Shown here: one piece after another, positions 40,432 through 64,000 of the stretch
Layout of the letters: each line of letters starts with the position of its first letter
Position numbering within the stretch: the stretch's first letter is position 1
Source: Nitrospirota bacterium
Lineage (GTDB): Bacteria; Nitrospirota; UBA9217
Direction: 5' to 3'
Assembly (NCBI GenBank): GCA_963749655.1
Contig: CAVVOB010000030.1
Coordinates: 256,001 to 320,000, forward strand
DNA: 64,000 nt
The notes under the pieces: model-generated
Database searches by the model: none
What the model saw: only the letters and a program-made list of their open reading frames with translations
Told to the model about the DNA's origin: nothing
Program-made: the position numbers and the translations under genes

Positions 40432-41106
40432 TTAGGGATGCTCATCCACCCACACTTCGCCGTCGGGCGTGGTCTCTTTCTTCCAGATCGGCGTGATGCG
40501 TTTCAGTTCGTCGATGCAGAACCTGCAGGCCTGAAAAGCCTCCTGACGATGACCTGAGGCGACGACGATCAAGACGATGTCCTCTCCCACCGGCACGGTA
40601 CCTATGCGATGAACGATCGTCGCGTCGATCACGCCGAACTCCTTGATCGCCCGCTCCCTGATTTCTCCGAGCTTCTTTTCAGCCATGCCGGGGTAGTGCT
40701 CGAACTCGAGCTTTGCTACCTCTTTTTCCCGCGAGACGTCGCGCGTCGCTCCGAGAAAGGTTACGACAGCCCCGATGGATGTCGACCCTTTTTTCAATTC
40801 TCTGACTTCGTGCTCGATTGAAAAAGGCTCCGCCTGGACACGAACATGTCCGCGTGCCGTATTCCCGCCTGAAAAGGGCGGCATGAGCGCCACCTCGTCT
40901 CCGTCCCTGACCGGCGCCTCAGGCCTTGCTAATTCCTGGTTCACCGTTACCATGATCCTGCCGCAGGAAAGGATGTCCGCCAGCGACGGTTGTTCGCGGG
41001 CCACCTGTGCAAGCAGTGCAGCGATGGTGCCGCCCGCGAATTCAACGATTAACTCGTCAGTGCCTGCTTTTTCTCTTAAGAGAGCAAATAATTTGACCGT
41101 TATCAT
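40432..41106 (-). CDS. fused molybdopterin synthase MoaD-MoaE (MoaX-like)
   Basis: MITVKLFALLRE...DEVALMPPFSGG followed in frame by GAVVTFLG, HRIG, PIWKKE; start ATG 41106. Confidence 0.92.
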   Translation of the reverse strand: MITVKLFALLREKAGTDELIVEFAGGTIAALLAQVAREQPSLADILSCGRIMVTVNQELARPEAPVRDGDEVALMPPFSGGNTARGHVRVQAEPFSIEHEVRELKKGSTSIGAVVTFLGATRDVSREKEVAKLEFEHYPGMAEKKLGEIRERAIKEFGVIDATIVHRIGTVPVGEDIVLIVVASGHRQEAFQACRFCIDELKRITPIWKKETTPDGEVWVDEHP

Positions 41107-41266
41107 AAGCGTAGCGTCCTTCGCCGCGACCGGCCGTTTGATGGCCGGACACCGGGTCTTAGAAAGTGAGAATTCCTGCTGCAGGGAGCCTTGGCCTGCG
41201 CTGACTGTGAAAAAATTTGGTCCTGAACAACTGCACGGATTGCATCGGGCTCGATCCTGTTCCCGA

Positions 41267-42109
41267 TCAGTATGCTCCGGCAAGAAGTGGTTTGCCGGAG
41301 CGAGGAAAGACATCGGCCGATTCCGCCTCCGCGAAGAGCCTGTCCACGGCCTTGATACCCTCAGGTCCCAGGTCGAGCGAAAAGTCGTTCACATAAAGGT
41401 CGATGTGGCTCTTCATCACGTTGTTGTCCATCTCCTGGCTGTGCTGCCGGCAGTATTCCAAAACTTCTTCACCGTGAGATCTGGCGTAGGTGAGGCTTTC
41501 TCTTATGCCCGCCTCCACGCTGAGCAGGACCTCGGAGCCGAGAACGCGTTTTCCGAGAATGGCGCCCAGGGGGATGGGAAGTCCCGTGTGTTCCTCCCAC
41601 CATGCTCCGAGATCGATCAGCTTTTCGAGTCCATACAGCGGATAGGTAAAGCGGCTCTCATGAATGATGAGCCCGGCCCGGGCCGTGCCTTCCGAAACGG
41701 CGCTCATGATGCGGTCGAAGGGCATGACGATGATATTCGCAAGCGAGGGATCGAACAAGCGAAGGAGCAGGTAGGCCGTGGTGAGCGCGCCGGGGATGGC
41801 AATGGGGCCTTCCTTGATATCGGACAACCCGGTCCCCGGACGTACCACGAGGAGAGGGCCGCAGCCCCGGCCGAGCGCACCGCCGGAGCGAAGCAGCGCA
41901 TAGTGCTCGCGAAGGTGCCCCAGGGCATGATAGGAAATTTTGGTTATATCAAGCCGGTTGTCGAGTGCCAGCTGGTTCAGGGTTTCGACATCTTCGAGCC
42001 GCTCCTCGAACCTGATGCCCGGTACCCGGACACGACCGTGGATGAGGGCGTAAAAAATGAATGTGTCGTTGGGGCAGGGCGAGTAGCCGATCGTAAGGGT
42101 CTGACTCAT
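41267..42109 (-). CDS. mqnD: 1,4-dihydroxy-6-naphthoate synthase
   Basis: SPCPNDTFIF, GALGRGCGPL, IHESRFTY, PIPLG, HIDLYVN. Confidence 0.95.
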   Translation of the reverse strand: MSQTLTIGYSPCPNDTFIFYALIHGRVRVPGIRFEERLEDVETLNQLALDNRLDITKISYHALGHLREHYALLRSGGALGRGCGPLLVVRPGTGLSDIKEGPIAIPGALTTAYLLLRLFDPSLANIIVMPFDRIMSAVSEGTARAGLIIHESRFTYPLYGLEKLIDLGAWWEEHTGLPIPLGAILGKRVLGSEVLLSVEAGIRESLTYARSHGEEVLEYCRQHSQEMDNNVMKSHIDLYVNDFSLDLGPEGIKAVDRLFAEAESADVFPRSGKPLLAGAY

Positions 42110-42183
42110 AGGGCGTCCCGCACCAGGCTGACTGAGACCGGATTGTGTCTTTTCCGGGGTTTATTCCGCATTCCGCAATCGTT

Positions 42184-42915
42184 TCACCTCTCCCAGTCCT
42201 CCACGATACAGCGCACGGCCTGCTGCACCGCCCGGACTGCCCGGGGAATGTCCCACGTTGCGAGGTCCCGGTCCTTGACGAGATTGGAGATGCCGCGCAC
42301 TTCGAGCCAGGGGACTCCGTGCAGTTCCGCAACCTGCGCCACTGCAGCGCCCTCCATGTTCTCACACAGGCCGTGATACCGTTGTTCGAGCTCTCGCGCC
42401 CGCGCTGCGGTTCCGGTGCAGGTAGACAGGGTCACAAAGGAACCGACGTGGACGCTGCTTTTGTCCATCTTCCGGCTTTCAAGGAGCGAGCGGAGTGAAC
42501 GCCGTACGAGCTGCTCCGATGCGGCGTAGGTCGAATAAATCACGGAGGAAGCGGTCTTGATCAGGGGGATGCCGATGTATTCCGCGTCCTTGAACCCTTC
42601 ATGGGTCAGCACGCCTTCGTCGCCCGCGATCTCCTCCTTTGCGAGCGCGATGTCGCCGATGCCGGCTCCTGCGGACGGGTAGGCGCCGCCGATGCCGAAA
42701 ACGACGAGGGCATCGCAATCAAAGCGCGTAAGAAGCAGCGTTGCAGCGTGGGCCGCATTCACCTTGCCCATGCCGCTGACGCACAGGAGGACCGGCTTGC
42801 TGCCCAGTCTGCTCTCGATCACGGAGAGGGAGCCCACCGTAGTGGTCCTCGCCGCGTGGTCCTCTCCGAGGAGCAGATTTGCCTCCGACTCGACCGAACA
42901 GATGAGTGCGATCAT
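42184..42915 (-). CDS. mqnB: futalosine hydrolase
   Basis: SGMGKVNAA, FGIGGAY, TLSTCTGT, ENMEGAAVA, EVRGISN; next to mqnD; start ATG 42915. Confidence 0.9.
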   Translation of the reverse strand: MIALICSVESEANLLLGEDHAARTTTVGSLSVIESRLGSKPVLLCVSGMGKVNAAHAATLLLTRFDCDALVVFGIGGAYPSAGAGIGDIALAKEEIAGDEGVLTHEGFKDAEYIGIPLIKTASSVIYSTYAASEQLVRRSLRSLLESRKMDKSSVHVGSFVTLSTCTGTAARARELEQRYHGLCENMEGAAVAQVAELHGVPWLEVRGISNLVKDRDLATWDIPRAVRAVQQAVRCIVEDWER

Positions 42916-49001: not shown

Positions 49002-50987
49002 TTATTCCTGTAGCCCTTTCACGAGATCATAGATTCCCGGATAATCGCTTTTTACTGCGTCCGTCTCTTCCCTGAGCATCCTGAGCGCCTCGGGAATGTG
49101 TTTTTCAAAGTACTTCTTGCCCTTGACCGCGGAAAGGAATCCGTAGGCGCCAAGCGCCTGCATATGGCGCTGGAGCCGGCAGGGGACGAGGCTTTCCCGG
49201 AATACGCCCGCCTGAAATTCGTAGGGCTGTTTTTCCCGCTCACTCACATAGTAGGCAAGCAGTTTTTCCCGCATCCTGTCGTCCAGCCGGAAATAGGGGT
49301 CCCAGAGGATCGACGCAACGTCGTAGGCCGCCGGCGCCATGCGCGCGCCCTGGAAGTCGATGACCCGCGGCATGCCGCCTGCGGTGATCATGATGTTCTG
49401 GCTCTGGAAGTCGCGATGGATCACGCCCTTCGGGTAGGCGTCCACCTTCCGGGCAAGGAGATGGAACTCTTCCTCGATGGCCGTCCGGTTTGACACTACA
49501 TTCCCCTTCATCCCGATCACGAAGCGCTCAAGAAAATAACCGGTCTCCCACCGCAGATGTTCATAGTCGAAGATCCGCGATTTGAGGAGCAGGCATTCAT
49601 GCACGTGGCTGGTGATGCGGGAATGAAGCGTTACGAGGACATCGAGGACGCTGCGGTAGATATCCTCGATATGGTCCGCGTCGTGGGGGAACTTCATGTA
49701 GGAGTAAAGGCTGGTGTCGCCCAGGTCCTCGAAGAGCGCGTGCTTTCCTGCATCGTCGGAAGCGATCAGGCCCGGTACGGGGATCGAATGGCCCGAGAAG
49801 AACCGGGTGTAGACGATATGCCGTTCATAATCCGGGTCGTCAGGCCTGCATTCCATGAGGACCGCCGATTTACCGTCGTTCCGCACGCGGAAGTAGCGTC
49901 GGTCGGAGCCGCCGAGCCCGATGAGGACGGCGTCCGCGCGGATCCCGGATTGCGAATTTCGAATCGCGGATCGAGGCGCTTCGGCTGCGACGCCGAAGTA
50001 GCGCGCGAAGAGCGGATCTGCGAGAGATATCGTCTTTTGCTCCCGCGCGTGGAGCGTGGGCTGCATGTCCGTTTCCCGGAGATCGACGGCATAGTCCGGA
50101 CCGATGATCCGGTTTTTCTGTCTGCCTGAAACGCGCGCACCGGGCATCACGATGCAGTTCCTGATCCGCGCCTTGTCGTCTACCGTGCTTCCCTGTTCCA
50201 GCACGACATAGCCGTCTATCCCGATCTTTCCGCACTGCGCTGCAGGAGATCGATGGACCATTTCCCCTGTCTCCCGCAGGGCGTCGAGAACGCTGCCTGC
50301 ATAGGCCGCGGGCGTTCCGACGTCGTTCCAGTAGGCCCCGGTGACATCAAGCGCCTGCACGCGGCGCCCCGCTTTCGCGGCTGCGAGCCACGCAACGGTC
50401 GCATGGGACACGCCCGGAGGAAGGAACTGCAGGATCTCGGGCGAGTACAGGGCAATGCCGGTGTAGGCCGTTTTGTTCGCGACGCGGCCCGGATCGGGCC
50501 GGGAGTCCCCGGGGTTCTCGACGTCCAGAACGAGGCCGTTGTCATCGATGACCACATTGCTGAGCCTCGGGATCCGGTGCGTAACAAGTGTGGCGGTGTT
50601 GTTGTTCCGGAAATGGGTCTCGATCAGTCGCGAGAAATCGATGTCGAGGAGGATGTCGGAATTATGGACGATGAAGGGGCACTTGGACAGCAGCAGTTCG
50701 GCGTTCTTGAGCGCGCCGCCGGTGCCGAGGATAGGGTCCTCGGGGAAGAAGGTGATGCGGCTGGTCCAGGGTGACGAACCGGCCCACGATCGTATCAACT
50801 CCGGCTTCCAGTGAAGGTTGATCCCGATAGCGCCGTCGCACACCGAGGTAAGCCGCTCCAGGATGATCTCGATAAGCGGCTTGCCGAGTATCGGGAGCAG
50901 CGGCTTGGGCAGGTGGTTTGTTATAGGCTTCATCCGCTCGCCGAGGCCCGCGGCGGGGAGAAATATGGTGATTTGATGCTTGAACAT
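49002..50987 (-). CDS. fused MurU-like nucleotidyltransferase / AmgK-like sugar kinase
   Basis: PAAGLGERMKP...PKPL, GTGG; GGSDRRYFR, HRDFQSQN, IDFQ, YDVASILWDPY. Confidence 0.88.
   Translation of the reverse strand: MFKHQITIFLPAAGLGERMKPITNHLPKPLLPILGKPLIEIILERLTSVCDGAIGINLHWKPELIRSWAGSSPWTSRITFFPEDPILGTGGALKNAELLLSKCPFIVHNSDILLDIDFSRLIETHFRNNNTATLVTHRIPRLSNVVIDDNGLVLDVENPGDSRPDPGRVANKTAYTGIALYSPEILQFLPPGVSHATVAWLAAAKAGRRVQALDVTGAYWNDVGTPAAYAGSVLDALRETGEMVHRSPAAQCGKIGIDGYVVLEQGSTVDDKARIRNCIVMPGARVSGRQKNRIIGPDYAVDLRETDMQPTLHAREQKTISLADPLFARYFGVAAEAPRSAIRNSQSGIRADAVLIGLGGSDRRYFRVRNDGKSAVLMECRPDDPDYERHIVYTRFFSGHSIPVPGLIASDDAGKHALFEDLGDTSLYSYMKFPHDADHIEDIYRSVLDVLVTLHSRITSHVHECLLLKSRIFDYEHLRWETGYFLERFVIGMKGNVVSNRTAIEEEFHLLARKVDAYPKGVIHRDFQSQNIMITAGGMPRVIDFQGARMAPAAYDVASILWDPYFRLDDRMREKLLAYYVSEREKQPYEFQAGVFRESLVPCRLQRHMQALGAYGFLSAVKGKKYFEKHIPEALRMLREETDAVKSDYPGIYDLVKGLQE
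49939..49973. repeat. five degenerate heptamers inside a coding linker
   Basis: CGGATCC CGGATTG CGAATTT CGAATCG CGGATCG, encoding RSAIRNSQSGIR on the minus strand. Confidence 0.65.
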
Positions 50988-50994
50988 ATTTTTT

Positions 50995-51100
50995 GCCACG
51001 AATTTACACGAATTTTCACGAAGAAGGACTTTAAATTAAGATTACGATATGTACGATATGTAAATTTTTTAAATTCGTGTCCATTCGTGTAATTCGTGGC
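50995..51100. repeat. inverted element with 9-10-nt periodic arms
   Basis: GCCACGAATT TACACGAATT TTCACGAA ... TTCGTGT CCATTCGTGT AATTCGTGGC; perfect 10-bp terminal IR; AT-rich core with TACGATATG x2. Confidence 0.85.
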
Positions 51101-54647: not shown

Positions 54648-56675
54648 GTGAAAAGAACTGTAGCCCTGACGCTCGTAATAGGGCTTGTGTGCGCTCCGGC
54701 ATCCTACGCTCAGACGTCAGGAAAGCCGGATTCTGCGGGAACGGCCTCACCGGAGCCCGCGTCCGTCCGCCCTTCGCCGGACCAGCAGGAAGTGAAGAAA
54801 CGCCGGTCAAGCGACGATTTCATAACGCTCAATTTTACGAATATCGACATCAGTGCGCTCGTCAAGGTGATGAGCGAGCTGACCCGCCGCAACTTTATCC
54901 TCGATGAGCGCGTGACCGGCAAGGTGACGCTCATGACGCCGACGAAGATCTCCCCTGATGAGGCCTATCAGGTGTTTCTCTCGGCGCTCGAGATCAAGGG
55001 CTTCACGGCTTTTGAGGACGGCAAGGTCGTCCGGATCATCGCCGCGGCCTCGGCGCGCCAGAGCGGACTCAAGGTCGTCCAGGACGGCGACATGCGCGGG
55101 GAAGGGTTCGTGACCAAGCTTATCCGTATGAGTTACGTCAACCCCCAGGAGATCGTCCGCACGATCTCGCCGCTCGTGAGCAAGGACGGTTCCATCTTGG
55201 CCTATGCCCCGACGAACTCGGTCATCGTTACCGACACCGTGTCCAATATCAGGAAGCTCGACAGCCTTATTCATGCCATGGACACGGCTGCGCCCGACGG
55301 CAAGGGAAAGATCAACGTCTATTATCTCAGGAACGCCAATTCCGAGGAGCTTGCCAAGATCATGCAGGCGCTCGTATCCAAGCTGCCGGTGCCGACCGCT
55401 GCCGGGGCCGCCCAGGCTGCCGGGGCCGCCAGCATCCTTGAAGGAAGCGTTTCCATCAATTCGGACAAAGCCACGAACTCGCTCATCGTCGTCGCTTCCC
55501 CCGGCGATTACGAGATTATGAAAGACGTGATCCAGAAGCTCGATATCAGGCGCCGCCAGGTCTATGTGGAGGCCGCCATCATCGAGATGAGCCTTTCAAA
55601 GCAGCGCGACCTCGGATTCGAGTTCCAGGTTCCCGTCTCCCAGAGCGCGATCGACGGCACCTCGGCGGCCGCCGTCGGAGGGACGAACTTCGGCAACATC
55701 GGCAATGTGGTGACCGGCGGGCCCGCCGGCCTTGCCAGCATGAACGGACTGGCCATAGGGGCGATCAAGGGCTCTTTTACGTATAACGGCACAACCTTTC
55801 TCAGTGTGGGAGCGCTTCTGCACGCCCTCCAGACCGACTCCGATGTGAATGTCCTGTCGACGCCCAATATTCTCACCATGGACAACCAGAAGGCCGAGAT
55901 CATGGTCGGCCAGAACGTCCCCTTTGTGACCGGCCAGACGCAGAATGCGACGACGGGCAGCGGGACCCTGTTCAACTCCATCGAACGCAAGGACGTGGGC
56001 ATTTCGCTTAAAATCACGCCCCAGATCACGTCCGACGACAACGTGCGGCTCGAAATCTACCAGGAAATCTCCGATGTGGTTCAAAGCGCCACGGCCTCGA
56101 GCAACGGCCCCACGACAAGCAAGCGCTCGGCGAGCACGACCGTCGTCGTGAAGGACCGCCAGACCATGGTCATCGGCGGCCTGATCCGCGACAACGTGGT
56201 TGCGACGACCTCGAAGGTGCCGTTCCTGGGCGATATCCCCGTCCTCGGCTGGCTTTTCAAGTCGAAGTCGACGAGGGTCGAAAAGACGAACCTCATGATC
56301 TTCCTGACGCCCTATATCATCAAGGACGAGGCTGAGGCGAACGAGCTGACGAACATGAAAAACAAGTCTCTCGAGGATTTCCGGAAGGAGTATCGCATCG
56401 AGAAGAAGAGCATCGAACCTACGAAGCTCAAGCCGAAGGCAGAAGGGCCGTCGGAGAAGCCGGCCGCGGCCGTGACGGCCCCCGCTGCCGCTGGTTCCGC
56501 GCCGACCGTCACTGCGGCGCCTTCCTCCGCAGCGCCCCAACAGCCGGAGGCGGTGAGCGGCGCCCCGGTCCGGAATCCTCCGGTTGTGTCAGCGCCGCCG
56601 CAGGAGCCGGCGTCCTCCCCCACAGCGACCCTGCCTCCGGGAAAGCCCGAGGCCCCGAAAGAGGACGCGCGGTGA
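54648..56675 (+). CDS. gspD: type II secretion secretin GspD
   Basis: Signal peptide, N0 domain, RRQVYVEAAI, NVLSTP, KVPFLGDIPVLGWLF; Pro/Ala-rich tail. Confidence 0.95.
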   Translation: MKRTVALTLVIGLVCAPASYAQTSGKPDSAGTASPEPASVRPSPDQQEVKKRRSSDDFITLNFTNIDISALVKVMSELTRRNFILDERVTGKVTLMTPTKISPDEAYQVFLSALEIKGFTAFEDGKVVRIIAAASARQSGLKVVQDGDMRGEGFVTKLIRMSYVNPQEIVRTISPLVSKDGSILAYAPTNSVIVTDTVSNIRKLDSLIHAMDTAAPDGKGKINVYYLRNANSEELAKIMQALVSKLPVPTAAGAAQAAGAASILEGSVSINSDKATNSLIVVASPGDYEIMKDVIQKLDIRRRQVYVEAAIIEMSLSKQRDLGFEFQVPVSQSAIDGTSAAAVGGTNFGNIGNVVTGGPAGLASMNGLAIGAIKGSFTYNGTTFLSVGALLHALQTDSDVNVLSTPNILTMDNQKAEIMVGQNVPFVTGQTQNATTGSGTLFNSIERKDVGISLKITPQITSDDNVRLEIYQEISDVVQSATASSNGPTTSKRSASTTVVVKDRQTMVIGGLIRDNVVATTSKVPFLGDIPVLGWLFKSKSTRVEKTNLMIFLTPYIIKDEAEANELTNMKNKSLEDFRKEYRIEKKSIEPTKLKPKAEGPSEKPAAAVTAPAAAGSAPTVTAAPSSAAPQQPEAVSGAPVRNPPVVSAPPQEPASSPTATLPPGKPEAPKEDAR

Positions 56676-58360
56676 GACGGCTGCTCGGCGAGATACTTGT
56701 TGAGTCCGGGCTGTCCCAGGAACGGCTCAAAAAAGCGCTGGAACTCCAGAAGAAACGGGGCGGCCGGATCGGCGCGCTGCTGATACGGCTCAGCTTCGTG
56801 ACGGAAGAAGAGGTGCTCAAGGCCCTCGGCGCGCAGCTCGGCCTGGCCTATCTGTCCGATCCCGGCGAGATCGACAGCGAGCTCGCGTTGAAGCTCCCGA
56901 TCTCCTACGCAAAAAAGGCCCTGGTCCTTCCGCTTCGGCGCGACAACGGGACGATCCTCGCGGCCACGTCCGAACCGCTCAACCTTTCCATGCTGGACGA
57001 CCTTTCGGCGCTGCTCGGCGCCGATATCGCGCTCTGCCTCGTTCCTTCCGACAAGATCCTCGACCGTTTGAACCGGCTGCACAGCGAGGACATGAACAAG
57101 GCCGAGGAGACGGTCCAGGAAATGGAGGAGGACGACCTGTCGTTCCTCGCGGCCGAGCTTGACGAGCCCACGGACCTGCTCGAAGTCACGGACGACGCCC
57201 CGATCATCCGGCTCGTCAATTCACTCCTGTCGCAGGCCATCCGCGAGCGCGCAAGCGACATCCACATCGAGCCCTTCGAGAAGGAGATGGTGGCGCGGTT
57301 CCGCATTGACGGCATCCTGTACAACATCCTTACGATCCAGAAGCGCTTCCAGGCCAGCATCGCGTCGCGCGTCAAGATCATGTCCAATCTCAACATCGCC
57401 GAGAAGCGCCTGCCCCAGGACGGCGGCATGCGGATCAAGATCGGCGGCAAGGACGTGGACATCCGCGTCTCCATCGTGCCCACGGCCTTCGGAGAGCGCA
57501 TCGTGCTTCGTCTCCTCTACCGCGAGAGCGCGCTCCTGCCGCTCGACCAGATCGGCTTTTCCGGCGATACGCTCACGCGGTTCAACGAAATGATCCAGCG
57601 GCCCCACGGGATCGTGCTCGTAACGGGCCCCACGGGAAGCGGGAAAACCACGACCCTCTACGCGTCGCTCTCGCAGATCAATTCTCCCGACAAGAACATC
57701 ATTACCATCGAGGACCCCATCGAGTACCAGCTCAAGGGCATCGGGCAGATCCAGGTGAACGCCAAGATCCAACTGACCTTTGCCGCGGGGCTCCGCTCCG
57801 TGCTCCGCCAGGACCCCGACGTGATCCTCGTGGGCGAGATCCGCGACGGGGAGACCGCCGAGATCGCGATCCAGGCGGCGCTCACCGGCCACCTCGTGTT
57901 CTCGACGCTCCATACGAATGATTCGGCCGGGGCGGTGACGCGGCTGATCGACATGAAAATCGAGCCGTTCCTGATCTCCTCGTCGGTCAATGCGATCCTG
58001 GCGCAGCGCCTTGTGCGCGTTCTCTGCTCGCAATGCCGGGAGCCCTACCAGATCACTCCCGCGGAAATTGCCGAGCTTGAGCTCAAGAGCGGCGTTGAAA
58101 ACACGACCGTGTACCGCGCCAAAGGCTGCGACGCCTGCTTCCACACCGGCTATCTCGGCCGTTCGGCGATCTACGAGCTGCTCACCGTGGACGATGATAT
58201 TCGACAGCTGATCATGAAAGACACCGATGCATCCACCATCAAGTACCAGGCCATGAACAAGGGCATGCGCACGCTCAGGCAGGACGGCGCCGCAAAGGTG
58301 CTCGCGGGCATCACCTCCGTCGATGAAGTGGTGCGGGTGACGCAGAAGGAAGCGCAATAA
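56672..58360 (+). CDS. gspE: type II secretion ATPase GspE
   Basis: ASDIHIEP, GPTGSGKTT, LRQDPDVILVGEIRD, two CxxC. Confidence 0.97.
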   Translation: MRRLLGEILVESGLSQERLKKALELQKKRGGRIGALLIRLSFVTEEEVLKALGAQLGLAYLSDPGEIDSELALKLPISYAKKALVLPLRRDNGTILAATSEPLNLSMLDDLSALLGADIALCLVPSDKILDRLNRLHSEDMNKAEETVQEMEEDDLSFLAAELDEPTDLLEVTDDAPIIRLVNSLLSQAIRERASDIHIEPFEKEMVARFRIDGILYNILTIQKRFQASIASRVKIMSNLNIAEKRLPQDGGMRIKIGGKDVDIRVSIVPTAFGERIVLRLLYRESALLPLDQIGFSGDTLTRFNEMIQRPHGIVLVTGPTGSGKTTTLYASLSQINSPDKNIITIEDPIEYQLKGIGQIQVNAKIQLTFAAGLRSVLRQDPDVILVGEIRDGETAEIAIQAALTGHLVFSTLHTNDSAGAVTRLIDMKIEPFLISSSVNAILAQRLVRVLCSQCREPYQITPAEIAELELKSGVENTTVYRAKGCDACFHTGYLGRSAIYELLTVDDDIRQLIMKDTDASTIKYQAMNKGMRTLRQDGAAKVLAGITSVDEVVRVTQKEAQ

Positions 58361-58363
58361 CGG

Positions 58364-58563
58364 CAGTTTTGAGTTGTGAGTTCTTAGTTTTGAGTTGAAA
58401 AGCTGGAACAAACAACTAAGAACTTATAACTCAACACTCAAAACTGATGGCCCGATAAAGAAGTTTTGAGTTCTGAGCTTTTAGTTTTGAGTTCGCAATT
58501 CGCTTGAAACAAGTCAGTACAGCGTTCACAACTAAGAACGTCATCACTCAACACTCAAAACTG
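58364..58563. repeat. two tandem heptamer-repeat hairpins, gspE-gspF junction
   Basis: (AGTTTTG-type)n ... (CAAAACT-type)n twice: 58364-58446 and 58462-58562. Confidence 0.9.
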
Positions 58564-58573
58564 AATTTAAACC

Positions 58574-59796
58574 ATGCCCGTTTTCGAATACAAAGGCGTT
58601 ACCGCCGTCGGGAAGAAGGTCTCCGGCGTCCAGGACGGCGACAGCCTGAAGGCCGTCAAGACACGGCTGAAAAAAGAAGGGGTCATCGTCCTCGACATCC
58701 GGGAAGGCACGTCGCTGCGCGCCGCCGGCCGCAGTACGGTCTCCTTCAGCTTCGGCAACCGGGTGAAGCTGGGCGACCTGGCCAATGCAACGCGGCAGCT
58801 CGCCACGCTGCTGTCCTCGGGACTGCCGCTGATGGATGCACTGTCCGTGCTCGTGGAGCAGGAGGAAGCCGCGCCGCTCAAGGGCGCTTTGGCCGCGGTG
58901 CGCGACAGCGTGCGGGAAGGCGCTTCGCTTGCCGACGCGCTCAAGGGCAATCCGAAGGCCTTTTCGCAACTGTACATCAACATGGTATCGGCAGGCGAGT
59001 CGAGCGGCACCCTGGAGATCACTCTCGACCGGCTCGCGGACTTTCTGGACGAACAGGTCCGGTTCCGCGGCAGGATCTCCGCCGCCCTTGCCTATCCGGC
59101 GTTCATGACCGTGATCGGCATCGGCATGCTCTTTTTCATCTTCAGCTTCGTGATGCCGCGCATCGTGGGCATGTTCGAGGACATGAAACAGCAGCTGCCG
59201 TTCATCACGACCATACTGCTCCTGGTCGTGCGGTTCCTGCAGTCGTTCTGGTGGGGGCTCATCCTGATCGCCGCCGGAGCGCGTCTATTCCTTCCGGAAG
59301 TACGCGGCAACGCACCGCGGGCAAGGAAAAGATCGATGCCCGGCTGCTCCGGCTTCCGGTCTTCGGGACCCTCATCAGGATGATCGCCGTTTCGCGGTTC
59401 ACCCGGACGCTCGGCACGCTGCTGCAGAGCGGCGTGCCCACGCTGACGGCCCTCGATATCGTGAAGAATGTGATCGGCAACACGGTGCTCGCGAACGCCG
59501 TGCAGAAGGCCCGTGAGAACGTGCGCGAGGGCGAACCCATCGCCGACCCGCTCCGGAGGAGCGGCCTCTTCCCGCCGGTGGTGGTGCAGATGGTCGCGGT
59601 GGGCGAGAAGAGCGGAGAACTTGAGAAAATGCTGCTCAAGATATCCGACTCCTTCGACCGTACCGTCGAAACGCGGCTCACCGGGCTCATGGCCCTCATG
59701 GAGCCGGTGATCATCCTCGTCATGGGGCTGATCATCGGGTTCGTCGTGATCGCGATCATGCTGCCGATGCTCGAGATGAGCTCGGGAGTGAGATGA
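58574..59796 (+). CDS. gspF: type II secretion protein GspF; frameshift(s) near 59280-59315
   Basis: TRQLATLLSSGLPL, AGESSGTL, AYP in one frame; RFTRTLGTLLQSGVP, VGEKSGEL, EP in another. Confidence 0.92.
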
Positions 59797-59807
59797 TGTA
59801 ATTAAGT

Positions 59808-59899
59808 ACGGAATGAACACGGATGAACACGGTTATGAATGCATAGAAGGTCCTTTTTTCTCCATCTGAATTTAGATACTGTGTATTATCTGTGGTTCC
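59808..59899. repeat. degenerate 10-nt periodic inverted element, gspF-gspG junction
   Basis: ATGAACACGG x2 (59813-59832) ... CTGTGTATTATCTGTGGTTCC. Confidence 0.6.
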
Positions 59900-59925
59900 A
59901 AATGTCTTGAAGGAGGTTTTGTGCC

Positions 59926-60359
59926 ATGAAGAATCGAAAGGCTTTACCCTCATCGAAATCATGGTGGTCATCATCATCCTCGGCCTGCTTGCCGGCCTGG
60001 TGCTGCCCAAGTTCCTGGGCCAGGAGGAAAAGGCAAAGGTCGAGGTCGCGAAGACGCAGATCCGGGCGCTCGAAGGCGCGCTGGACGCCTACAAGCTCGA
60101 CAACGGCTTTTACCCGTCGTCCGATCAGGGGCTCGATGCCCTGATCAAGAAGCCGGAGACCGGACGCATCCCCGACAAATGGCGGGAGGGCGGCTACCTC
60201 AAGCCCGCGCGAATCCCCAAGGACCCCTGGGGCAAGGACTACGTCTACATCTCCCCGGGAAGCGAGAGCAGGGAATATGAGATCGTTTCCTACGGAGCCG
60301 ACGGCGAGCCCGGAGGCGACGGCAACAACGCGGACATCGAGAGTTGGAAGATGCAGTAA
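59926..60359 (+). CDS. gspG: major pseudopilin GspG; SD-linked ATG is one base out of frame
   Basis: GFTLIEIMVV, YKLDNG.YP, GGYL, PKDPWG, SYGADG; AGGAGG-ATG 59926 needs -1 at CGA AAG to give MKNRKG|FTLIE. Confidence 0.92.
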
Positions 60360-60365
60360 AAGAAT

Positions 60366-60899
60366 ATGGGGCAAGGGGCAAGGGTCAAGGGTCAGGGAAG
60401 AACCAGTCTCAATGGGTTCACGCTCATCGAGATGATGGTGGTGCTCGCGGTGCTCGGCGTCATGCTGACGCTGATCATTCCGCGCCTCGCGGACCTGGGC
60501 GAGGCGAACCTGAAGCGGAGCGCCCGGCACCTGACGGGCATGATCCGTTTTTTGCGCGATGAGGCCCAGGCCAAGAAGAATACCTACCGGCTCCGGTTCG
60601 ATGTCCAGGCCGGGCACTACTGGGCCGAGGTCATGACCCAGACAGCCGAGCAGGCCGTCGAATTCAGGCGCTGGGAGTCGGAAATGGGGACCGTGGCCGA
60701 CCTGTCCGGAAGCACCGCCTTCCGCGACGTCAAGGTGAGCAGCCATCCCGACGATCCGTATATCGAGTTTTATCCCAACGGGTGGGTTGAGAGCGCGTTC
60801 ATCCACCTGCGCGACGGAAGCGACAAGGATTTTACGCTTCATGTGAAACCGCTCACCGGAGATACGGAGCTTCTCGACGGATACGTGGAGGAGAAGTAG
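60366..60899 (+). CDS. gspH: minor pseudopilin GspH
   Basis: G|FTLIEMMVV prepilin motif; IEFYPNG; operon position. Confidence 0.85.
   Translation: MGQGARVKGQGRTSLNGFTLIEMMVVLAVLGVMLTLIIPRLADLGEANLKRSARHLTGMIRFLRDEAQAKKNTYRLRFDVQAGHYWAEVMTQTAEQAVEFRRWESEMGTVADLSGSTAFRDVKVSSHPDDPYIEFYPNGWVESAFIHLRDGSDKDFTLHVKPLTGDTELLDGYVEEK
60368..60395 (+). repeat. four heptamers encoding the GspH leader
   Basis: GGGGCAA GGGGCAA GGGTCAA GGGTCAG. Confidence 0.8.
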
Positions 60900-60903
60900 G
60901 GGA

Positions 60904-61060
60904 AATGCGGAATGCGGAGTGCGGAGTGCGGAATTGCCCCTCACCCCAACCCTCTCCCCGAGGGGGAGAGGGCGTGCCTTTTATTCCGCACTCCGACCTG
61001 TCCCCTGCGTTTACGAGTGCGGATGCACGGAGTGCGCGGGAATTCCGAATTCCGAATTCG
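60904..61060. repeat. composite nested repeat in gspI 5' end
   Basis: A(A/G)TGCGG x4; CCCTCTCCCC-GAG-GGGGAGAGGG hairpin; 76-bp element 60983-61058; ATTCCG(C/A) return arm. Confidence 0.9.
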
Positions 61061-61405
61061 AAAGGCTTCACCCTCCTCGAAGTAATGGTGGCCGTGGTGA
61101 TCATGTCATCGGTGCTGGTCACCCTGATCGGGCTCAGCAACAACAGCGTGCAGAACGTGAAGCGCGCGGAGCAGATTACCACTGCGACCATGCTGGCAAA
61201 GAGTATGATGGCCGATACGGTCATCATCAGGCCGCGCATGCCCGTGGAAGACGAGGGCACCTTCCCTGAGGAGGAATACAAGGATTACGCCTGGAAGAAG
61301 ACCATCATCGCCACCGAGGTCACCGGGATCATGGAAGTGCATGTCGCCGTGCTTTGGAAGGAAGGCGAGCGCACGGAGCAGGTGGAACTCTTGAGCTATG
61401 AATAG
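60905..61405 (+). CDS. gspI: minor pseudopilin GspI with up to 54-aa repeat-derived leader
   Basis: G|FTLLEVMVA at codons 54/55; EGTF...YAW...V.VAVLW. Confidence 0.85.
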   Translation: MRNAECGVRNCPSPQPSPRGGEGVPFIPHSDLSPAFTSADARSAREFRIPNSKGFTLLEVMVAVVIMSSVLVTLIGLSNNSVQNVKRAEQITTATMLAKSMMADTVIIRPRMPVEDEGTFPEEEYKDYAWKKTIIATEVTGIMEVHVAVLWKEGERTEQVELLSYE

Positions 61406-62123
61406 CATGACCGATTGCGGATTGCGGAATGCGGAATGGCAGAAAAGAGGTCGAATCAGGGATTATTTTAATCCGCAATCCGCAATCCGAATTCCGAAAT
61501 TGAAAGGTTTTACGCTTTTGGAAGTGCTGATCGCCGTGGCGATCATGGCAGGCATCCTGACCGTGATCTACATGAGCTTTTTTACGGTAAGCCGGAACAT
61601 CGAGCAGGCCGAGACGACCAGGGACATGGCGGACCTGGCGCGCACTCTTATGACCAGGATGTCGGACGAAGTGGCAAACGCCTATGTGAACACCAGCATG
61701 AATTCGCCCGTGGTCCTTACGGTTTTTTACGGCAAAAAGGTGGCGGAGGGAAACGGGGAAGACGCAAAGAGACATGACGAGCTCTCTCTTACCACGCTTA
61801 CGAACTCGCCCAGGCTGAACACGAAGGAGACCGACCTCTGGGAAGTGGGCTATTTTTTCAGGCAGAAGCCGGACGGGTCGGGCTGGGTCCTGTATCGCAG
61901 GGAAAAGCGCTTGCTGAGCCCCGATACTCCCGCCCTTGAAGGCGGCGACGAGTATGAGCTTACCGACCGCGTCGATCATTTGCGGCTCCGCTACAGCACC
62001 GGCACCGACTGGTCGGAGGAATGGGACAGCAAGACCAGACGCAACACGCCGAAGGAATTCGAGATCAACCTCGTGCTCACGGACGGTTCGGCGTACACTA
62101 CGCACGTCGAGGTGGGACGGTAG
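61398..62123 (+). CDS. gspJ: minor pseudopilin GspJ
   Basis: G|FTLLEVLIA; EVGY, LYRRE, W.EEWDS; operon position. Confidence 0.88.
   Translation: MNSMTDCGLRNAEWQKRGRIRDYFNPQSAIRIPKLKGFTLLEVLIAVAIMAGILTVIYMSFFTVSRNIEQAETTRDMADLARTLMTRMSDEVANAYVNTSMNSPVVLTVFYGKKVAEGNGEDAKRHDELSLTTLTNSPRLNTKETDLWEVGYFFRQKPDGSGWVLYRREKRLLSPDTPALEGGDEYELTDRVDHLRLRYSTGTDWSEEWDSKTRRNTPKEFEINLVLTDGSAYTTHVEVGR
61413..61500. repeat. heptamer inverted repeat in gspJ 5' end
   Basis: GATTGCG GATTGCG GAATGCG GAAT ... AATCCGC AATCCGC AATCCGA ATTCCGA. Confidence 0.88.
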
Positions 62124-62124
62124 C

Positions 62125-62200
62125 AATGCGGAATGCGGAATTCCCGCGCACTCCGTGCATCCGCACTCGTAAACGCCGGGGACAGGCCGGAATGCGGAAT
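62125..62200. repeat. inverted copy of the 76-bp element at 60983-61058
   Basis: Reverse complement matches at 71/76 positions with a 41-bp identical core (hand alignment). Confidence 0.9.
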
Positions 62201-63044
62201 GCAAACCGCAGCGATGCAGAACAATCGCGGCGTGGCGCTGATCATCGTGCTGCTGGTCACGGCGCTTCTGATCGCCCTGGTTTTCGAGTTCGCCTACGGC
62301 ACGCGGATCAGCATGCGCGCGGCAATCAATTTTCGCGACAGCCAGAGGGCATACTATCTTGCCCGCTCGGGCGTGAACGGGATCGGGCTGCTGCTGAGCT
62401 ATGATCTGAAGCAGAATTTGCCGCAGAACGATCTTGAGCAGCTCGACTGGACGGTTCCGCCCATCCCGCTGGCTGCCGATAGCGAGCTGCAGGTGCGCTG
62501 GGAGGACGAGAGCGGGAAGATCAATGTGAGCATCCTGACAAAAGGGAGTGACGGGTATAACCGGATGAGCCTGCTGTTCGATATCCAGGGGATCAGTCAG
62601 GAAACGCTCGACAAGATCAGCGCCTGGATGATGGAACAAAGAAAAAGCTTTTACCTGGTCACGGAGCTCCGCCAGTTTCTGAGCGACGAGGAATTTCGAA
62701 AAGTTAAGGATTTTGTGACCACGATCCAGACGAATACAACGAATAAGATCAATATCAATACCGCTCCTGCCAAGGTGCTTCAGAGTTTGGGCCTGGCCGC
62801 GTCGGATGCGAACCGGATCGTCGAGCTCAGAAAAGAACAGCCCTATTCCGACACGTCCGCAACGGGAAGAAAGATCGACACCGCGCCGGGCATGACGACG
62901 ACTATCCACGGCTGGCTGACTGATACGAGCAATGTTTTTAAAATCTATTCCTACGCCAAGGTCGGCGGATACGTAAAACAGGCGGAAGCGGTTATAACGC
63001 GGACAGCGACGGTGTTTACCGTGAATTACTGGAGAGTATTGTGA
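62133..63044 (+). CDS. gspK: minor pseudopilin GspK (start 62133, 62199 or 62214)
   Basis: RG|VALIIVLL, QRAYYLARSG, DESGKIN, KININTAP. Confidence 0.9.
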   Translation: MRNSRALRASALVNAGDRPECGMQTAAMQNNRGVALIIVLLVTALLIALVFEFAYGTRISMRAAINFRDSQRAYYLARSGVNGIGLLLSYDLKQNLPQNDLEQLDWTVPPIPLAADSELQVRWEDESGKINVSILTKGSDGYNRMSLLFDIQGISQETLDKISAWMMEQRKSFYLVTELRQFLSDEEFRKVKDFVTTIQTNTTNKININTAPAKVLQSLGLAASDANRIVELRKEQPYSDTSATGRKIDTAPGMTTTIHGWLTDTSNVFKIYSYAKVGGYVKQAEAVITRTATVFTVNYWRVL

Positions 63045-64000
63045 AAGTAGTCGGTTTGAACATATCAGCGGGCAAGGTCGCTGCTTCGATCGTCGAGAAG
63101 GGCCTGCGGAGCACGGAGCTCAAGGATTCCTTCAGCCGGACCTTCTCCAACGACGCAGAGCTCGCCGAGATCCTGCGCGAACAGGCGGGAAAGTGGACGG
63201 GCGCGCGCATCGTGTCGGCCATTTCCGGCCTGCGAATCAGTCAGCGCTCAGTGACCTTCCCTTTTGCCGACCGCAAGCGCGTGGAAAAGGCGCTTCCCTT
63301 CGAGCTCGAAGATATGGTGCCGTTCTCCCTCGATGAGGTGGAGCTCGATCACCTCGCGCTCGACAAGGACGGGGGAAAGGACAAGAAGAAGCCGACCGCT
63401 GTTGTGGCCATGATGGTCCCGAAGGCCGTTTTGCGCAGCCACCTCGAGCTCCTCGCATCGGCGGGCATCGATCCGCAGGCGATCCAGCCCTCCTTCCTCG
63501 GGCTGTGCCGCGTTGCCGGCATGATCCCGACCGAGGGACCCACGGTGGTTGTCGAGGGAAATGACCTCTGTCTGAAGGACGGCGGCGCCGTGAAGGCCTT
63601 CAGGAGCTTTTCCGACGCCCGGCCGTCCGGCGGCATCAAGCACACATTGAAGGCGCTCGAGACCGAGCACGGGATGCGGATCGAAAAAGCCGTCATTCTT
63701 TCGGAGAGCGAGCGTCTGCGCTCCGAGCTAGCGGGCCTAGAGATCGCCGTCGAGCTGGTCAGCCCCGATTTTCACGGCAAGACCGCGGACGATGCGGTGA
63801 GCCTGGGCCTCGCGCTGGCGGACGAGGTCAATTTCCGCAAGGGTGAATTCGCCTACCGCCTCGCCGATGTCGGTGACCGCAAGCGGAAACGCATGCTCAT
63901 CATCGCGGGGGCGGCAGCAGCGGTCCTAGCAGGGGTCAATCTGGGCGTCAAGTACTACCTCGTGGAGACGAGTTACAACAAGCTCGACCGCGAGATCCGG
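63041..64000 (+). CDS. gspL: type II secretion protein GspL, 5' part (partial; not in ORF track)
   Basis: Open frame from GTG 63041 to window end; FPFADRK...ALPFELE, VNFRKGEF then TM. Confidence 0.85.
   Translation, partial: MKVVGLNISAGKVAASIVEKGLRSTELKDSFSRTFSNDAELAEILREQAGKWTGARIVSAISGLRISQRSVTFPFADRKRVEKALPFELEDMVPFSLDEVELDHLALDKDGGKDKKKPTAVVAMMVPKAVLRSHLELLASAGIDPQAIQPSFLGLCRVAGMIPTEGPTVVVEGNDLCLKDGGAVKAFRSFSDARPSGGIKHTLKALETEHGMRIEKAVILSESERLRSELAGLEIAVELVSPDFHGKTADDAVSLGLALADEVNFRKGEFAYRLADVGDRKRKRMLIIAGAAAAVLAGVNLGVKYYLVETSYNKLDREIR

Follow-up and report, generated by a model that had tools for sequence, protein, structure and literature searches.

Repeat DNA in the predicted leader-coding segments of minor pseudopilin genes of a Nitrospirota type II secretion cluster

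Introduction

In a stretch of 64,000 nt from a Nitrospirota bacterium (UBA9217 lineage; assembly GCA_963749655.1, contig CAVVOB010000030.1, positions 256,001 to 320,000 of the forward strand), referred to here as the window, the last 10 kb carry a type II secretion system (T2SS) gene cluster in the order gspD-E-F-G-H-I-J-K-L, with gspL represented by its start only. In the minor pseudopilin genes gspH, gspI and gspJ, the stretch between the stop codon of the upstream gene and the cleavage motif G↓FT(L)xE (the arrow marks the cleavage site) consists mostly of 7-nt tandem arrays and hairpins and is open in the frame of the respective gene. This raises the question of whether the repeat DNA is translated as part of the prepilin leaders and, if so, what allows these genes to hold it. 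Class III signal peptides are described in a review as hydrophilic, positively charged, cytoplasmic leaders that are cut after a Gly residue, 6-26 aa in length and short in pseudopilins (PMC4471445). The leaders deduced for the window comprise 17 aa in GspH, 54 (or 31) aa in GspI and 37 (or 34) aa in GspJ, and those of GspI and GspJ lie outside the described range.

An earlier reading of this DNA from its letters alone, below called the sequence-only reading, had suggested that the discarded leader is a safe harbour for in-frame insertions and that gain or loss of 7-nt units could switch the genes on and off. Here, the three genes were analyzed base by base and compared with related loci and with public homologues. 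The findings make it fairly probable that coupled translation runs through the repeat DNA and that prepilin peptidase then removes the repeat-encoded leader, which would thus be a site tolerant of such DNA.

Results

Anatomy of the predicted leader-coding segments

The simplest arrangement was found in gspH, for which the sequence-only reading had described a leader MGQGARVKGQG written by four heptamers, with no other start before G↓FTLIE. This description holds: ATG 60366 is the sole in-frame ATG, GTG or TTG between TAA 60357 and the Gly codon at 60414, and the direct repeat occupies codons 1-10 (Table 1). Tandem Repeats Finder assigned 3.4 copies at 94% match to this array (60368-60391), which forms no hairpin (z of the folding energy relative to shuffled sequences of +0.45).

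The gspI segment is a nested composite of outer heptamer arms, an inner pair of inverted arms (60922-60934 and 60983-60995; 13 nt, perfect), the CCCTCTCCCC-GAG-GGGGAGAGGG hairpin and a 76-nt element, the last part of which, GAATTCC in 2.9 copies (61040-61059), stops 4 nt short of the gspI Gly codon. The in-frame starts are ATG 60905, with a leader of 54 aa including the Gly, GTG 60926, and GTG 60974, with a leader of 31 aa; both leader lengths had been given before and were confirmed base by base as in frame and open. From GTG 60974 to the Gly codon at 61064 there is no ATG, GTG or TTG, and only ATT 60983, CTG 60998 and ATT 61049 are present. The left heptamer arm itself supplies ATG 60905, ATG 60912, GTG 60919 and GTG 60926 and hence starts in all three frames, and three overlapping open reading frames (ORFs) open at 60905, 60912 and 60919. 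By our count, repeats and hairpins make up about 131 of the 162 nt of this leader, and the region 60895-61075 folds at -82.7 kcal/mol (z -3.57).

In gspJ, the in-frame starts are ATG 61398, ATG 61407, TTG 61422 and TTG 61500, the last of which lies two codons before the Gly codon at 61506. The inverted arms 61413-61435 and 61472-61494 match at 87%, 16 nt of them perfectly, and the region folds at -38.1 kcal/mol (z -2.91). Since the two arms account for 57 of 102 nt and the whole hairpin for 88 of 102 nt (our count), the earlier statement that the leader is almost entirely repeat arms is slightly overstated for gspJ.

In this part of the window, Tandem Repeats Finder located period-7 arrays at 60368-60391, 60904-60934, 61040-61059, 61413-61438, 61470-61500, 62125-62141 and 62188-62202. 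The arrays are imperfect, with a match of 87-100% over 2.1-4.4 units. When the entire 64 kb were scanned strictly for period 7, six arrays were returned, every one of them within 60368-62141.

Table 1. Positions of T2SS genes and repeat features in the window, and heptamer units at distant loci. MAG, metagenome-assembled genome; SD, Shine-Dalgarno sequence.
Feature	Position	Strand	Remarks
gspD	54648-56675
Two heptamer-armed hairpins, gspE-gspF spacer	58365-58445, 58462-58565	+	AGTTTTG/AGTTGTG versus CAAAACT/CACAACT; z -5.69 and -3.14
gspF	58574-59796		Split into two ORFs
gspG, major pseudopilin	59919-60359	+	TIGR01710, 185 bits, above cut-off; leader short, repeat-free
gspH ORF	60366-60899	+	Leader 60366-60416, MGQGARVKGQGRTSLNG; public protein P0241 shares the start
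gspH four-heptamer array	60368-60395	+	GGGGCAA GGGGCAA GGGTCAA GGGTCAG; direct repeat
gspI ORF	60905-61405	+	Leader 60905-61066, 54 aa from ATG 60905; ATG 5 nt past the gspH stop
gspI left heptamer arm	60904-60934	+	AATGCGG/AGTGCGG, 4.4 units
gspI inner hairpin	60950-60972	+	CCCTCTCCCC-GAG-GGGGAGAGGG, peptide PSPRGGEG; dispersed repeat family
76-nt heptamer-flanked element	60983-61058	+	93% inverted copy at 62125-62200
gspJ ORF	61398-62123	+	Leader 61398-61508, 37 aa; ATG 61398 overlaps the gspI stop; public protein P0121 shares the start
gspJ leader hairpin	61413-61500	+	Left arm 61413-61438 (GATTGCG/GAATGCG), loop, right arm 61470-61500 (AATCCGC/AATTCCG)
Inverted copy of the 76-nt element	62125-62200	+	Between the gspJ stop and gspK; frame open from ATG 62133
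L058, deltaproteobacterial MAG			CACTCTT and GGAG-type arms
L038, Thermodesulfovibrionales genome			GCGAACT, CCGGCAC
L065, Methylomirabilota MAG			GGGGTCA, GAACATC, ATGTTGG/CCAACAT
L055, Syntrophaceae MAG			CACAACT; left arm with stops, SD and ATG in the loop, right arm alone coding
L049			CCTGGAC

Gene junctions in related genomes

The genome scan returned 80 loci, of which the four closest (55-68% GspI identity) belong to the Nitrospirota MAGs L001, L002, L003 and L015, and the remaining 76 are more distant (Desulfuromonadales, Syntrophia, Methylomirabilota and others). In L002, L003 and L015, the DNA follows one layout, in which an ATG touches the upstream stop and is followed by a left arm of heptamers, a loop (often the CCCTCTCCCC hairpin), the right arm and, after one to three further codons, GGC TTC ACC. 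Stop codons strictly inside the gap between upstream stop and Gly codon were counted at 12 junctions, i.e., those of gspH, gspI and gspJ in the window and in L001, L002 and L003, the three fullest of the Nitrospirota relatives. Only one stop was present in the frame of the gene, compared to 13 and 12 in the other two frames; accordingly, the gene's frame was open at 11 of the 12 junctions and the other frames at 4 and 5. The gaps of gspH and gspI in the window are free of stops in all three frames, so openness there is a property of the repeat and no frame-specific evidence, and the frame-specific signal derives from gspJ and from the relatives.

Moreover, at all ten gspH, gspI and gspJ junctions of the window and of the relatives with arrays, L002, L003 and L015, an in-frame ATG is found close to where the upstream stop ends, at a distance of -8 to +6 nt, and the gspJ ATG overlaps the last gspI codons in the form TATGA(G/A)TAG. 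The position of the start thus appears to be tied to the preceding gene, with the variable DNA following the start up to the Gly codon. In L001, where few repeats are left, no in-frame ATG is found that near the upstream stop at any of the three junctions. Across the window and 10 of the 80 loci, 24 period-7 arrays were detected within 200 nt upstream of a Gly codon. For 14 of these, the nearest in-frame ATG, GTG or TTG precedes the entire array, which is thus translated if any canonical start is used. The repeats in the leaders are therefore very probably translated, as far as can be judged from the arrangement of starts, stops and arrays.

Leaders of public homologues

The N-termini of the best 120 public protein matches to each of GspI, GspJ and GspH, 360 in total, were read for comparison. 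A cleavage motif is present in 354 of them (117 GspI, 120 GspJ and 117 GspH), with median leader lengths of 29, 29 and 18 aa and ranges of 2-50, 3-70 and 5-61 aa, respectively; leaders of at least 15 aa occur in 108, 102 and 102 proteins. The 354 leaders are hydrophilic (mean hydropathy -0.87 to -1.11), and the net charge is above zero in 83-91%. Many resemble translated repeats, for example NAECGIRNSEW...PHSAFRIPHSKG, CGLRIADCG...NPQSAIRNPQSKG and MGQGSRVKGQG. A window of 6 aa that can be encoded by a perfect heptamer tandem was found in 66 GspI, 72 GspJ and 60 GspH leaders as compared to 0, 1 and 3 shuffled leaders, and in the mature parts of only 1 GspI and 2 GspH proteins. The corresponding control for mature GspJ is void because all of its matches, in 90 of 120 proteins, represent one conserved motif, R[RKN]EKRE.

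The homologues also carry traces of the junctions described above, given that 90 of the 120 GspJ proteins begin with MN or MS, as predicted from the conserved overlap. Furthermore, leader lengths fall into classes: 37 of 117 GspH leaders have exactly 17 aa (52 have 15-19 aa), all of the MGQG.R.KGQG type, and 21 of 120 GspJ leaders have exactly 36 aa (37 have 35-38 aa); in the latter, the two arms enclose a loop that can be recognised as W-x-K-[QK]-G-R-x-R-C. Over their mature parts, the proteins of these classes are no more than 52-72% identical. Expanded arrays are seen in a few homologues, such as P0282 (44 aa) and P0292 (31 aa). The left and right arms deduced from the peptides resemble each other more when they belong to one leader than when they belong to different leaders (mean cyclic distance 1.27 versus 1.62 ± 0.07; reached in 0 of 500 permutations); the test is weak, given the relatedness of the sequences and the narrow heptamer family. 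As a separate observation, Ala replaces the invariant Gly before FTLIE in the GspH homologues P0270, P0291 and P0304 (...RNTAA↓FTLIE); if real, this exchange is expected to block cleavage.

These data bear on the view that the repeats are non-coding and intercistronic, that a weak or non-canonical codon close upstream of the Gly codon, such as TTG 61500 in gspJ or ATT 61049 in gspI, serves as the start, and that the long ORFs are accidental products of stop-free units. The gspH and gspI gaps of the window, open in every frame, would agree with it, as would in-frame ATT, ATC or TTG codons 2-7 codons before the Gly, a public gspI call that omits the long ORF, and the left arm of L055, which contains stops and is followed by a start in the loop. 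However, gspH has no alternative start of any common kind, the depletion of stops is specific to the gene's frame, a coupled in-frame ATG is present at every junction in the set of ten, and more than half of the arrays lie past the nearest canonical start. Additionally, among leaders of at least 12 aa, 43 of 110 in GspI, 66 of 112 in GspJ and 42 of 106 in GspH contain no Met, Val or Leu in the last 10 residues before the Gly. The latter count for GspJ also shows that TTG 61500, which the sequence-only reading had offered as a possible gspJ start and which is indeed there in the window, does not occupy a conserved position. A non-coding status of the repeats thus seems quite improbable.

The second proposal of the sequence-only reading concerned a contingency locus, in which slippage by 7 nt between the start and the cleavage motif would switch single minor pseudopilins on and off. 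Non-triplet tandem repeats between start and gene body recur in several phyla, arrays have expanded in the few homologues named above, and the opa genes provide a precedent (PMC3745409). A gain or loss of one unit was simulated for each of five arrays, and an in-frame canonical start was kept in 10 of 10 cases, and the gspI left arm offers starts in all three frames; in gspH the starts remaining after a single-unit change are inside gspG and probably poor, and expression may drop. Typical contingency arrays are longer than those found here (2.1-4.4 units, 87-100% match). The arrays are decayed by substitution, yet leader length is conserved between orthologues at 52-72% identity (17 aa in GspH and 36 aa in GspJ). 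With short, imperfect arrays, conserved orthologous leader lengths and starts that survive simulated unit changes, a switch of this kind is highly improbable, and the proposal was not upheld.

Ancestral state, spread and folding

For the 76 more distant loci, the median gap between upstream stop and Gly codon is 31.5 nt (n = 176; 43 gaps of at least 90 nt) and leaders mostly comprise 4-13 aa, whereas the gap spans 54-178 nt in the window, L002 and L003; the long leaders are thus derived. The presence of arrays that were decayed by substitution while length was kept points to repeat-built leaders that would be old and mostly stable. The heptamer units are unrelated between lineages (CACTCTT, GCGAACT, GAACATC, CACAACT, CCTGGAC and others; Table 1), and a single mobile element as the source of all leaders was ruled out on account of these differences. 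The hairpin was likewise ruled out as the common feature, since several leader arrays consist of direct repeats and are not more strongly folded than shuffled sequences. Among the leader regions of relatives, 5 of 10 reach z values of -2 or lower and 3 exceed zero: strong folds are predicted for L002 gspH (-6.78), L003 gspI (-4.55) and L055 gspJ (-4.37), and direct arrays without such folds are found in L003 gspJ (+1.67), L065 gspI (+0.13) and L038 gspJ (+0.85). In all three relatives that hold the gene, gspG has a clean SD and a short leader.

The folding results are relevant to the alternative that an mRNA function maintains the repeats, where intercistronic hairpins would hide starts so that only coupled ribosomes use them, or would set mRNA stability. 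A low ratio of GspH, GspI, GspJ and GspK to GspG would thereby be fixed, with translation of the repeats as a side effect. Several observations are in line with this alternative: the strong folds of gspI and gspJ in the window and of the three relatives just named, the start codons in or beside the left arm and beside the upstream stop, and the clean SD and short leader retained by gspG, for which high output is needed. Moreover, period-7 arrays are enriched at pseudopilin 5' ends, leader classes with the W-x-K-[QK]-G-R-x-R-C loop persist at 52-60% identity, and the arms match better within than between leaders, subject to the weakness of that test. By contrast, the hairpin is not universal, as the unfolded direct arrays of window gspH, L003 gspJ, L065 gspI and L038 gspJ demonstrate, no more than half of the relatives' leader regions fold strongly, and the region has no matching Rfam family. 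An mRNA function as the reason for the persistence of the repeats therefore appears doubtful to us, and it can coexist with tolerance of the leader.

Dispersed copies of the repeats

The repeats of the leaders are not confined to them. The two-unit motif GCGGAATGCGGA of the main heptamer family (at most 2 mismatches) has 30 matches in the window as compared to 12.25 ± 3.84 expected, a number reached by 0 of 100 shuffles, and 14 of the 30 fall in 60900-62205. The 76-nt element, which has heptamers at both ends and an internal hairpin, is present in two copies of opposite orientation (60983-61058 and 62125-62200; 93%), and its peptide PHSDLSPAFTSADARSAREFRIPH also ends the unrelated 162-aa ORF P0363 from another record. 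The inner gspI hairpin together with its flank (60944-60975) translates to PSPQPSPRGGEG; this peptide recurs in tandem in the unrelated ORFs P0364, P0366 and P0367 and is present in two copies each in the gspH and gspJ leaders of L002. The CCCTCTCCCC-GAG-GGGGAGAGGG hairpin thus appears to be a widespread repeat family. When the 54-aa GspI leader alone was searched against 1.84 billion protein representatives, six matches were obtained, most of which look like translated repeat DNA, and none of the six has a prepilin cleavage motif. Judging from the recurrence of the 76-nt peptide and of the PSPQPSP..GEG peptide in unrelated ORFs, the inner parts of the gspI leader are dispersed elements.

Elsewhere in the window, the two hairpins of the gspE-gspF spacer are non-coding owing to TGA in their + strand units, and in L055 the right arm of the gspJ leader, which is coding, is built from CACAACT, a unit similar to those of the spacer arms. 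A minus-strand ORF (49002-50999) contains a degenerate heptamer array at 49937-49973, which keeps the reading frame within the linker joining the NTP_transferase and APH domains and is read as RSAIRNSQSGIR / PRSAIRNSQSGIR. This peptide resembles the right-arm leader peptides, and the linker is a second tolerant protein segment that holds repeat DNA. Two further repeats were noted: a hairpin at 50997-51098 with decamer tandem arms (CACGAATTTA in 2.6 and AATTCGTGTC in 2.8 copies) abuts the GTG at 50999 of the same NTP_transferase-APH gene, and a two-unit ATTCCGC array at 42163-42177, an exact match to the main family, is located far from the secretion cluster; the + strand ORF around it (40775-42376) has no Pfam match. 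A search of 57800-63200 against Rfam at permissive thresholds gave only chance-level miRNA and snoRNA matches far below gathering scores, and no gene resembling a RAYT (REP-associated tyrosine transposase; Y1 transposase) was found among the 36 window ORFs scanned with Pfam.

Gene identities and state of the secretion cluster

Gene identities were assigned by NCBIfam and Pfam profile scans. GspH, GspI, GspJ and GspK score below the equivalog cut-offs (48.7 of 80, 41.2 of 44.35, 35.3 of 64.85 and 114 of 130 bits, respectively), with these families as top or near-top matches, and on the gspI product the XpsI model outscores the GspI model (46.8 of 150 versus 41.2 of 44.35 bits). PF11612 (T2SSJ) is above the cut-off for GspJ, the cleavage motif models PF07963 (N_methyl) and TIGR02532 are above theirs in GspG, GspH, GspI and GspJ, and the gene order G-H-I-J-K inside the gspD-E-F...L cluster is as expected for a T2SS. 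No prepilin-peptidase family was detected in the subset of window ORFs that was scanned. In addition to the start that the inverted 76-nt copy upstream of it could provide (Table 1), gspK has a canonical-looking proximal start, ATG 62214 (MQNNRG↓VALII). Long antisense ORFs of 352 and 526 aa (59886-60944 and 61329-62909, both on the - strand) traverse the pseudopilin genes and the repeats and are most likely artefacts of G+C-rich, stop-poor sequence.

Two genes upstream of gspH show lesions. Relative to L001 and L003, gspF appears to have gained single nucleotides at two sites some 25 nt from each other (near 59285 and near 59312), and its C-terminal half is consequently out of frame, which reflects either a real pseudogene or a local assembly error. 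In gspG, a strong SD (GGAGG) and a well-spaced ATG at 59926 are one base out of frame with G↓FTLIE, and the in-frame starts are limited to TTG 59919 (too near the SD; leader MCHEESKG), TTG 59907 and GTG 59892. The orthologues begin MTNQKG, MKNHKG and MKKNNSKG from the equivalent ATG, and the shift looks like the loss of 1 nt in a run of A. These lesions could mean that the secretion system is decaying in this genome and that the repeat-filled leaders are part of the decay. However, L001 and L003, in which gspF is intact at that site, share the long-leader layout (arrays are scored in L003 and not in L001), and mature GspH, GspI and GspJ are conserved across 120 homologues each with the cleavage motif intact. 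The lesions are also possibly local assembly errors, and the other window genes that were checked match their Pfam domains end to end. Decay as the origin of the long leaders is accordingly improbable.

Discussion

Here, the stretches between upstream stop and cleavage motif in gspH, gspI and gspJ were analyzed with respect to their anatomy, reading frames and spread among relatives. We propose that translation of the three genes would begin at an ATG adjoining or overlapping the stop of the preceding gene, i.e., by translational coupling, that translation would proceed through the 7-nt arrays and hairpins to give prepilins with hydrophilic, net-positive leaders of 17, 54 and 37 aa, and that the leader would stay in the cytoplasm and be removed after the invariant Gly by prepilin peptidase. 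Because the leader is cut off in the cytoplasm, its sequence and length would be almost free to vary, and repeat DNA landing or growing between the coupled ATG and the Gly codon would therefore be tolerated, provided that the repeat is stop-free and keeps the frame. Heptamer arrays would be helpful in this regard, since 21 nt, the length of three units, encode the same residues whichever frame is used. Once present, an insert would be inherited, would decay by point mutation and would now and then be expanded or replaced. The safe-harbour proposal of the sequence-only reading is supported in this respect, a tolerant leader being the simplest account; translation of the leaders is backed by the frame-specific lack of stops, the ATG next to the upstream stop, the 14 of 24 arrays past canonical starts and the leaders of the homologues. 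The sequences directly show the anatomy, the open frames, the shortage of stops in the gene's frame and the occurrence in relatives, from which we infer that the distal ATG is the start in use, that the peptidase accepts leaders of such length and that the repeats are functionless passengers.

Several observations weigh against this account. Leaders of 30-70 aa are beyond the 6-26 aa of the review cited above, and initiation at gspI should be impeded by the predicted structure of -82.7 kcal/mol over its start, unless this structure is opened through coupling. The in-frame ATT and ATC codons in the right arms (61049, 61485 and 61491) and TTG 61500 of gspJ are possible weak proximal starts, the gspH and gspI gaps of the window are open in all three frames, and in distant lineages the depletion of stops is weak (16 versus 27 and 26, our own sum), which fits with starts that often lie in the loop, leaving the right arm alone as coding. 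The public gspI call P0001 (106 aa; 61085-61405 of the window) begins at the internal Met of ...LLEVMVAV, past the cleavage motif; one homologue, P0098, is called in the same way, and public start calls for these pseudopilin genes are unreliable. The gspF insertions and the out-of-frame gspG start indicate that this T2SS copy may be decaying. Finally, an array near the start was found in 17 of 246 pseudopilin-type ORFs as compared to 8 of 466 other ORFs from the same sequences (odds ratio 4.25, p = 8e-4; the ORF calls are rough), and in the window alone in 3 of 4 as compared to 1 of 58. Together with the conserved classes of leader length, this enrichment at 5' ends hints at more than passive tolerance.

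As a further possibility, the leader arrays could be a selected module shared across phyla, namely frame-proof, "self-starting" cassettes that tune coupled translation and hence the dose of pseudopilus tip subunits. Stop-free units specify the same peptide in all frames, and some bring their own ATG with a GGAG one unit upstream (GCGGAGT GCGGAAT G). The cassettes would occur alone or as inverted arms and would be exchanged among the paralogous 5' ends of gspH, gspI and gspJ. We regard a selected module as rather unlikely; if true, type IV filament systems would contain coding repeats of a new class that act in regulation.

If the tolerant-leader account is correct, a discarded prepilin-type leader is able to absorb repeat DNA on a large scale, and T2SS leader lengths are pushed well past the textbook range, which provides a natural test of the tolerance of prepilin peptidase and membrane insertion. 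It would also account for misplaced starts assigned by gene callers in Nitrospirota and related MAGs. Moreover, the occurrence of unrelated heptamers at one spot in several phyla poses the question of whether they merely survive there or set the dose of pseudopilus tip subunits. In the literature outside subscription journals, no account was found of pseudopilin or prepilin leaders built from repeats, nor of heptamer repeats in Nitrospirae, and repeat-stretched pseudopilin leaders are unusual and apparently undescribed.

Comparison With Known Systems

With class III signal peptides, as known from type IVb pilins and Flp, the leaders share the Gly at -1, the F/T/L/x/E motif with Glu at +5, the hydrophobic helix of about 21 residues and a hydrophilic, positive leader; unlike in the described range, the T2SS minor pseudopilin leaders considered here have medians of 18-29 aa and reach 50-70 aa. 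Short dispersed palindromes between operon genes, in both orientations, are also known as repetitive extragenic palindromic (REP) sequences, REPINs and bacterial interspersed mosaic elements (BIMEs), which are extragenic by definition and RAYT-dependent. The repeats reported here differ from REP sequences and REPINs in that they are inside the leader ORFs and their arms are tandem heptamers. Intergenic heptamer repeats comparable in kind are the short tandemly repeated repetitive (STRR) sequences of cyanobacteria and, more generally, long simple sequence repeats. In Beggiatoaceae, TAACTGA heptamers are reported to reflect a preference for 7-nt units and to cluster just upstream of start codons (PMC4679880). 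In contrast to the stop-containing TAACTGA units outside the coding sequence, the units described here are free of stops on the sense strand, lie inside the ORF and often form inverted arms.

The arrays of opa genes are long. As in opa, a tandem repeat of non-triplet units is positioned between start codon and gene body, in the stretch that encodes the leader of an exported protein; unlike in opa, the arrays found here have at most 4.4 units, are decayed and are length-conserved between diverged orthologues. For Neisseria opa, CTCTT repeats in the leader-coding part and switching at about 1e-3 per generation are described (PMC3745409). Both arms of inverted repeats are reported to be located inside protein-coding sequence in mitochondrial genes of Nematomorpha (PMC6649704); these differ in kingdom and genome type, and the Nematomorpha peptides stay in the protein.

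The parallel drawn by the sequence-only reading, that with Rickettsia palindromic elements (RPEs), is apt. RPEs are described as palindromic repeats inserted in frame in protein genes and translated (PMC10969869). In both cases, dispersed multi-copy repeat DNA is contained inside an ORF, with the frame kept and no stop introduced. RPEs form families of about 150 bp and their peptide stays in the mature protein, whereas in the minor pseudopilin genes the repeats are built from 7-nt units, often as inverted arms, with units that differ between lineages, and are restricted to the part of the protein that is cut off.

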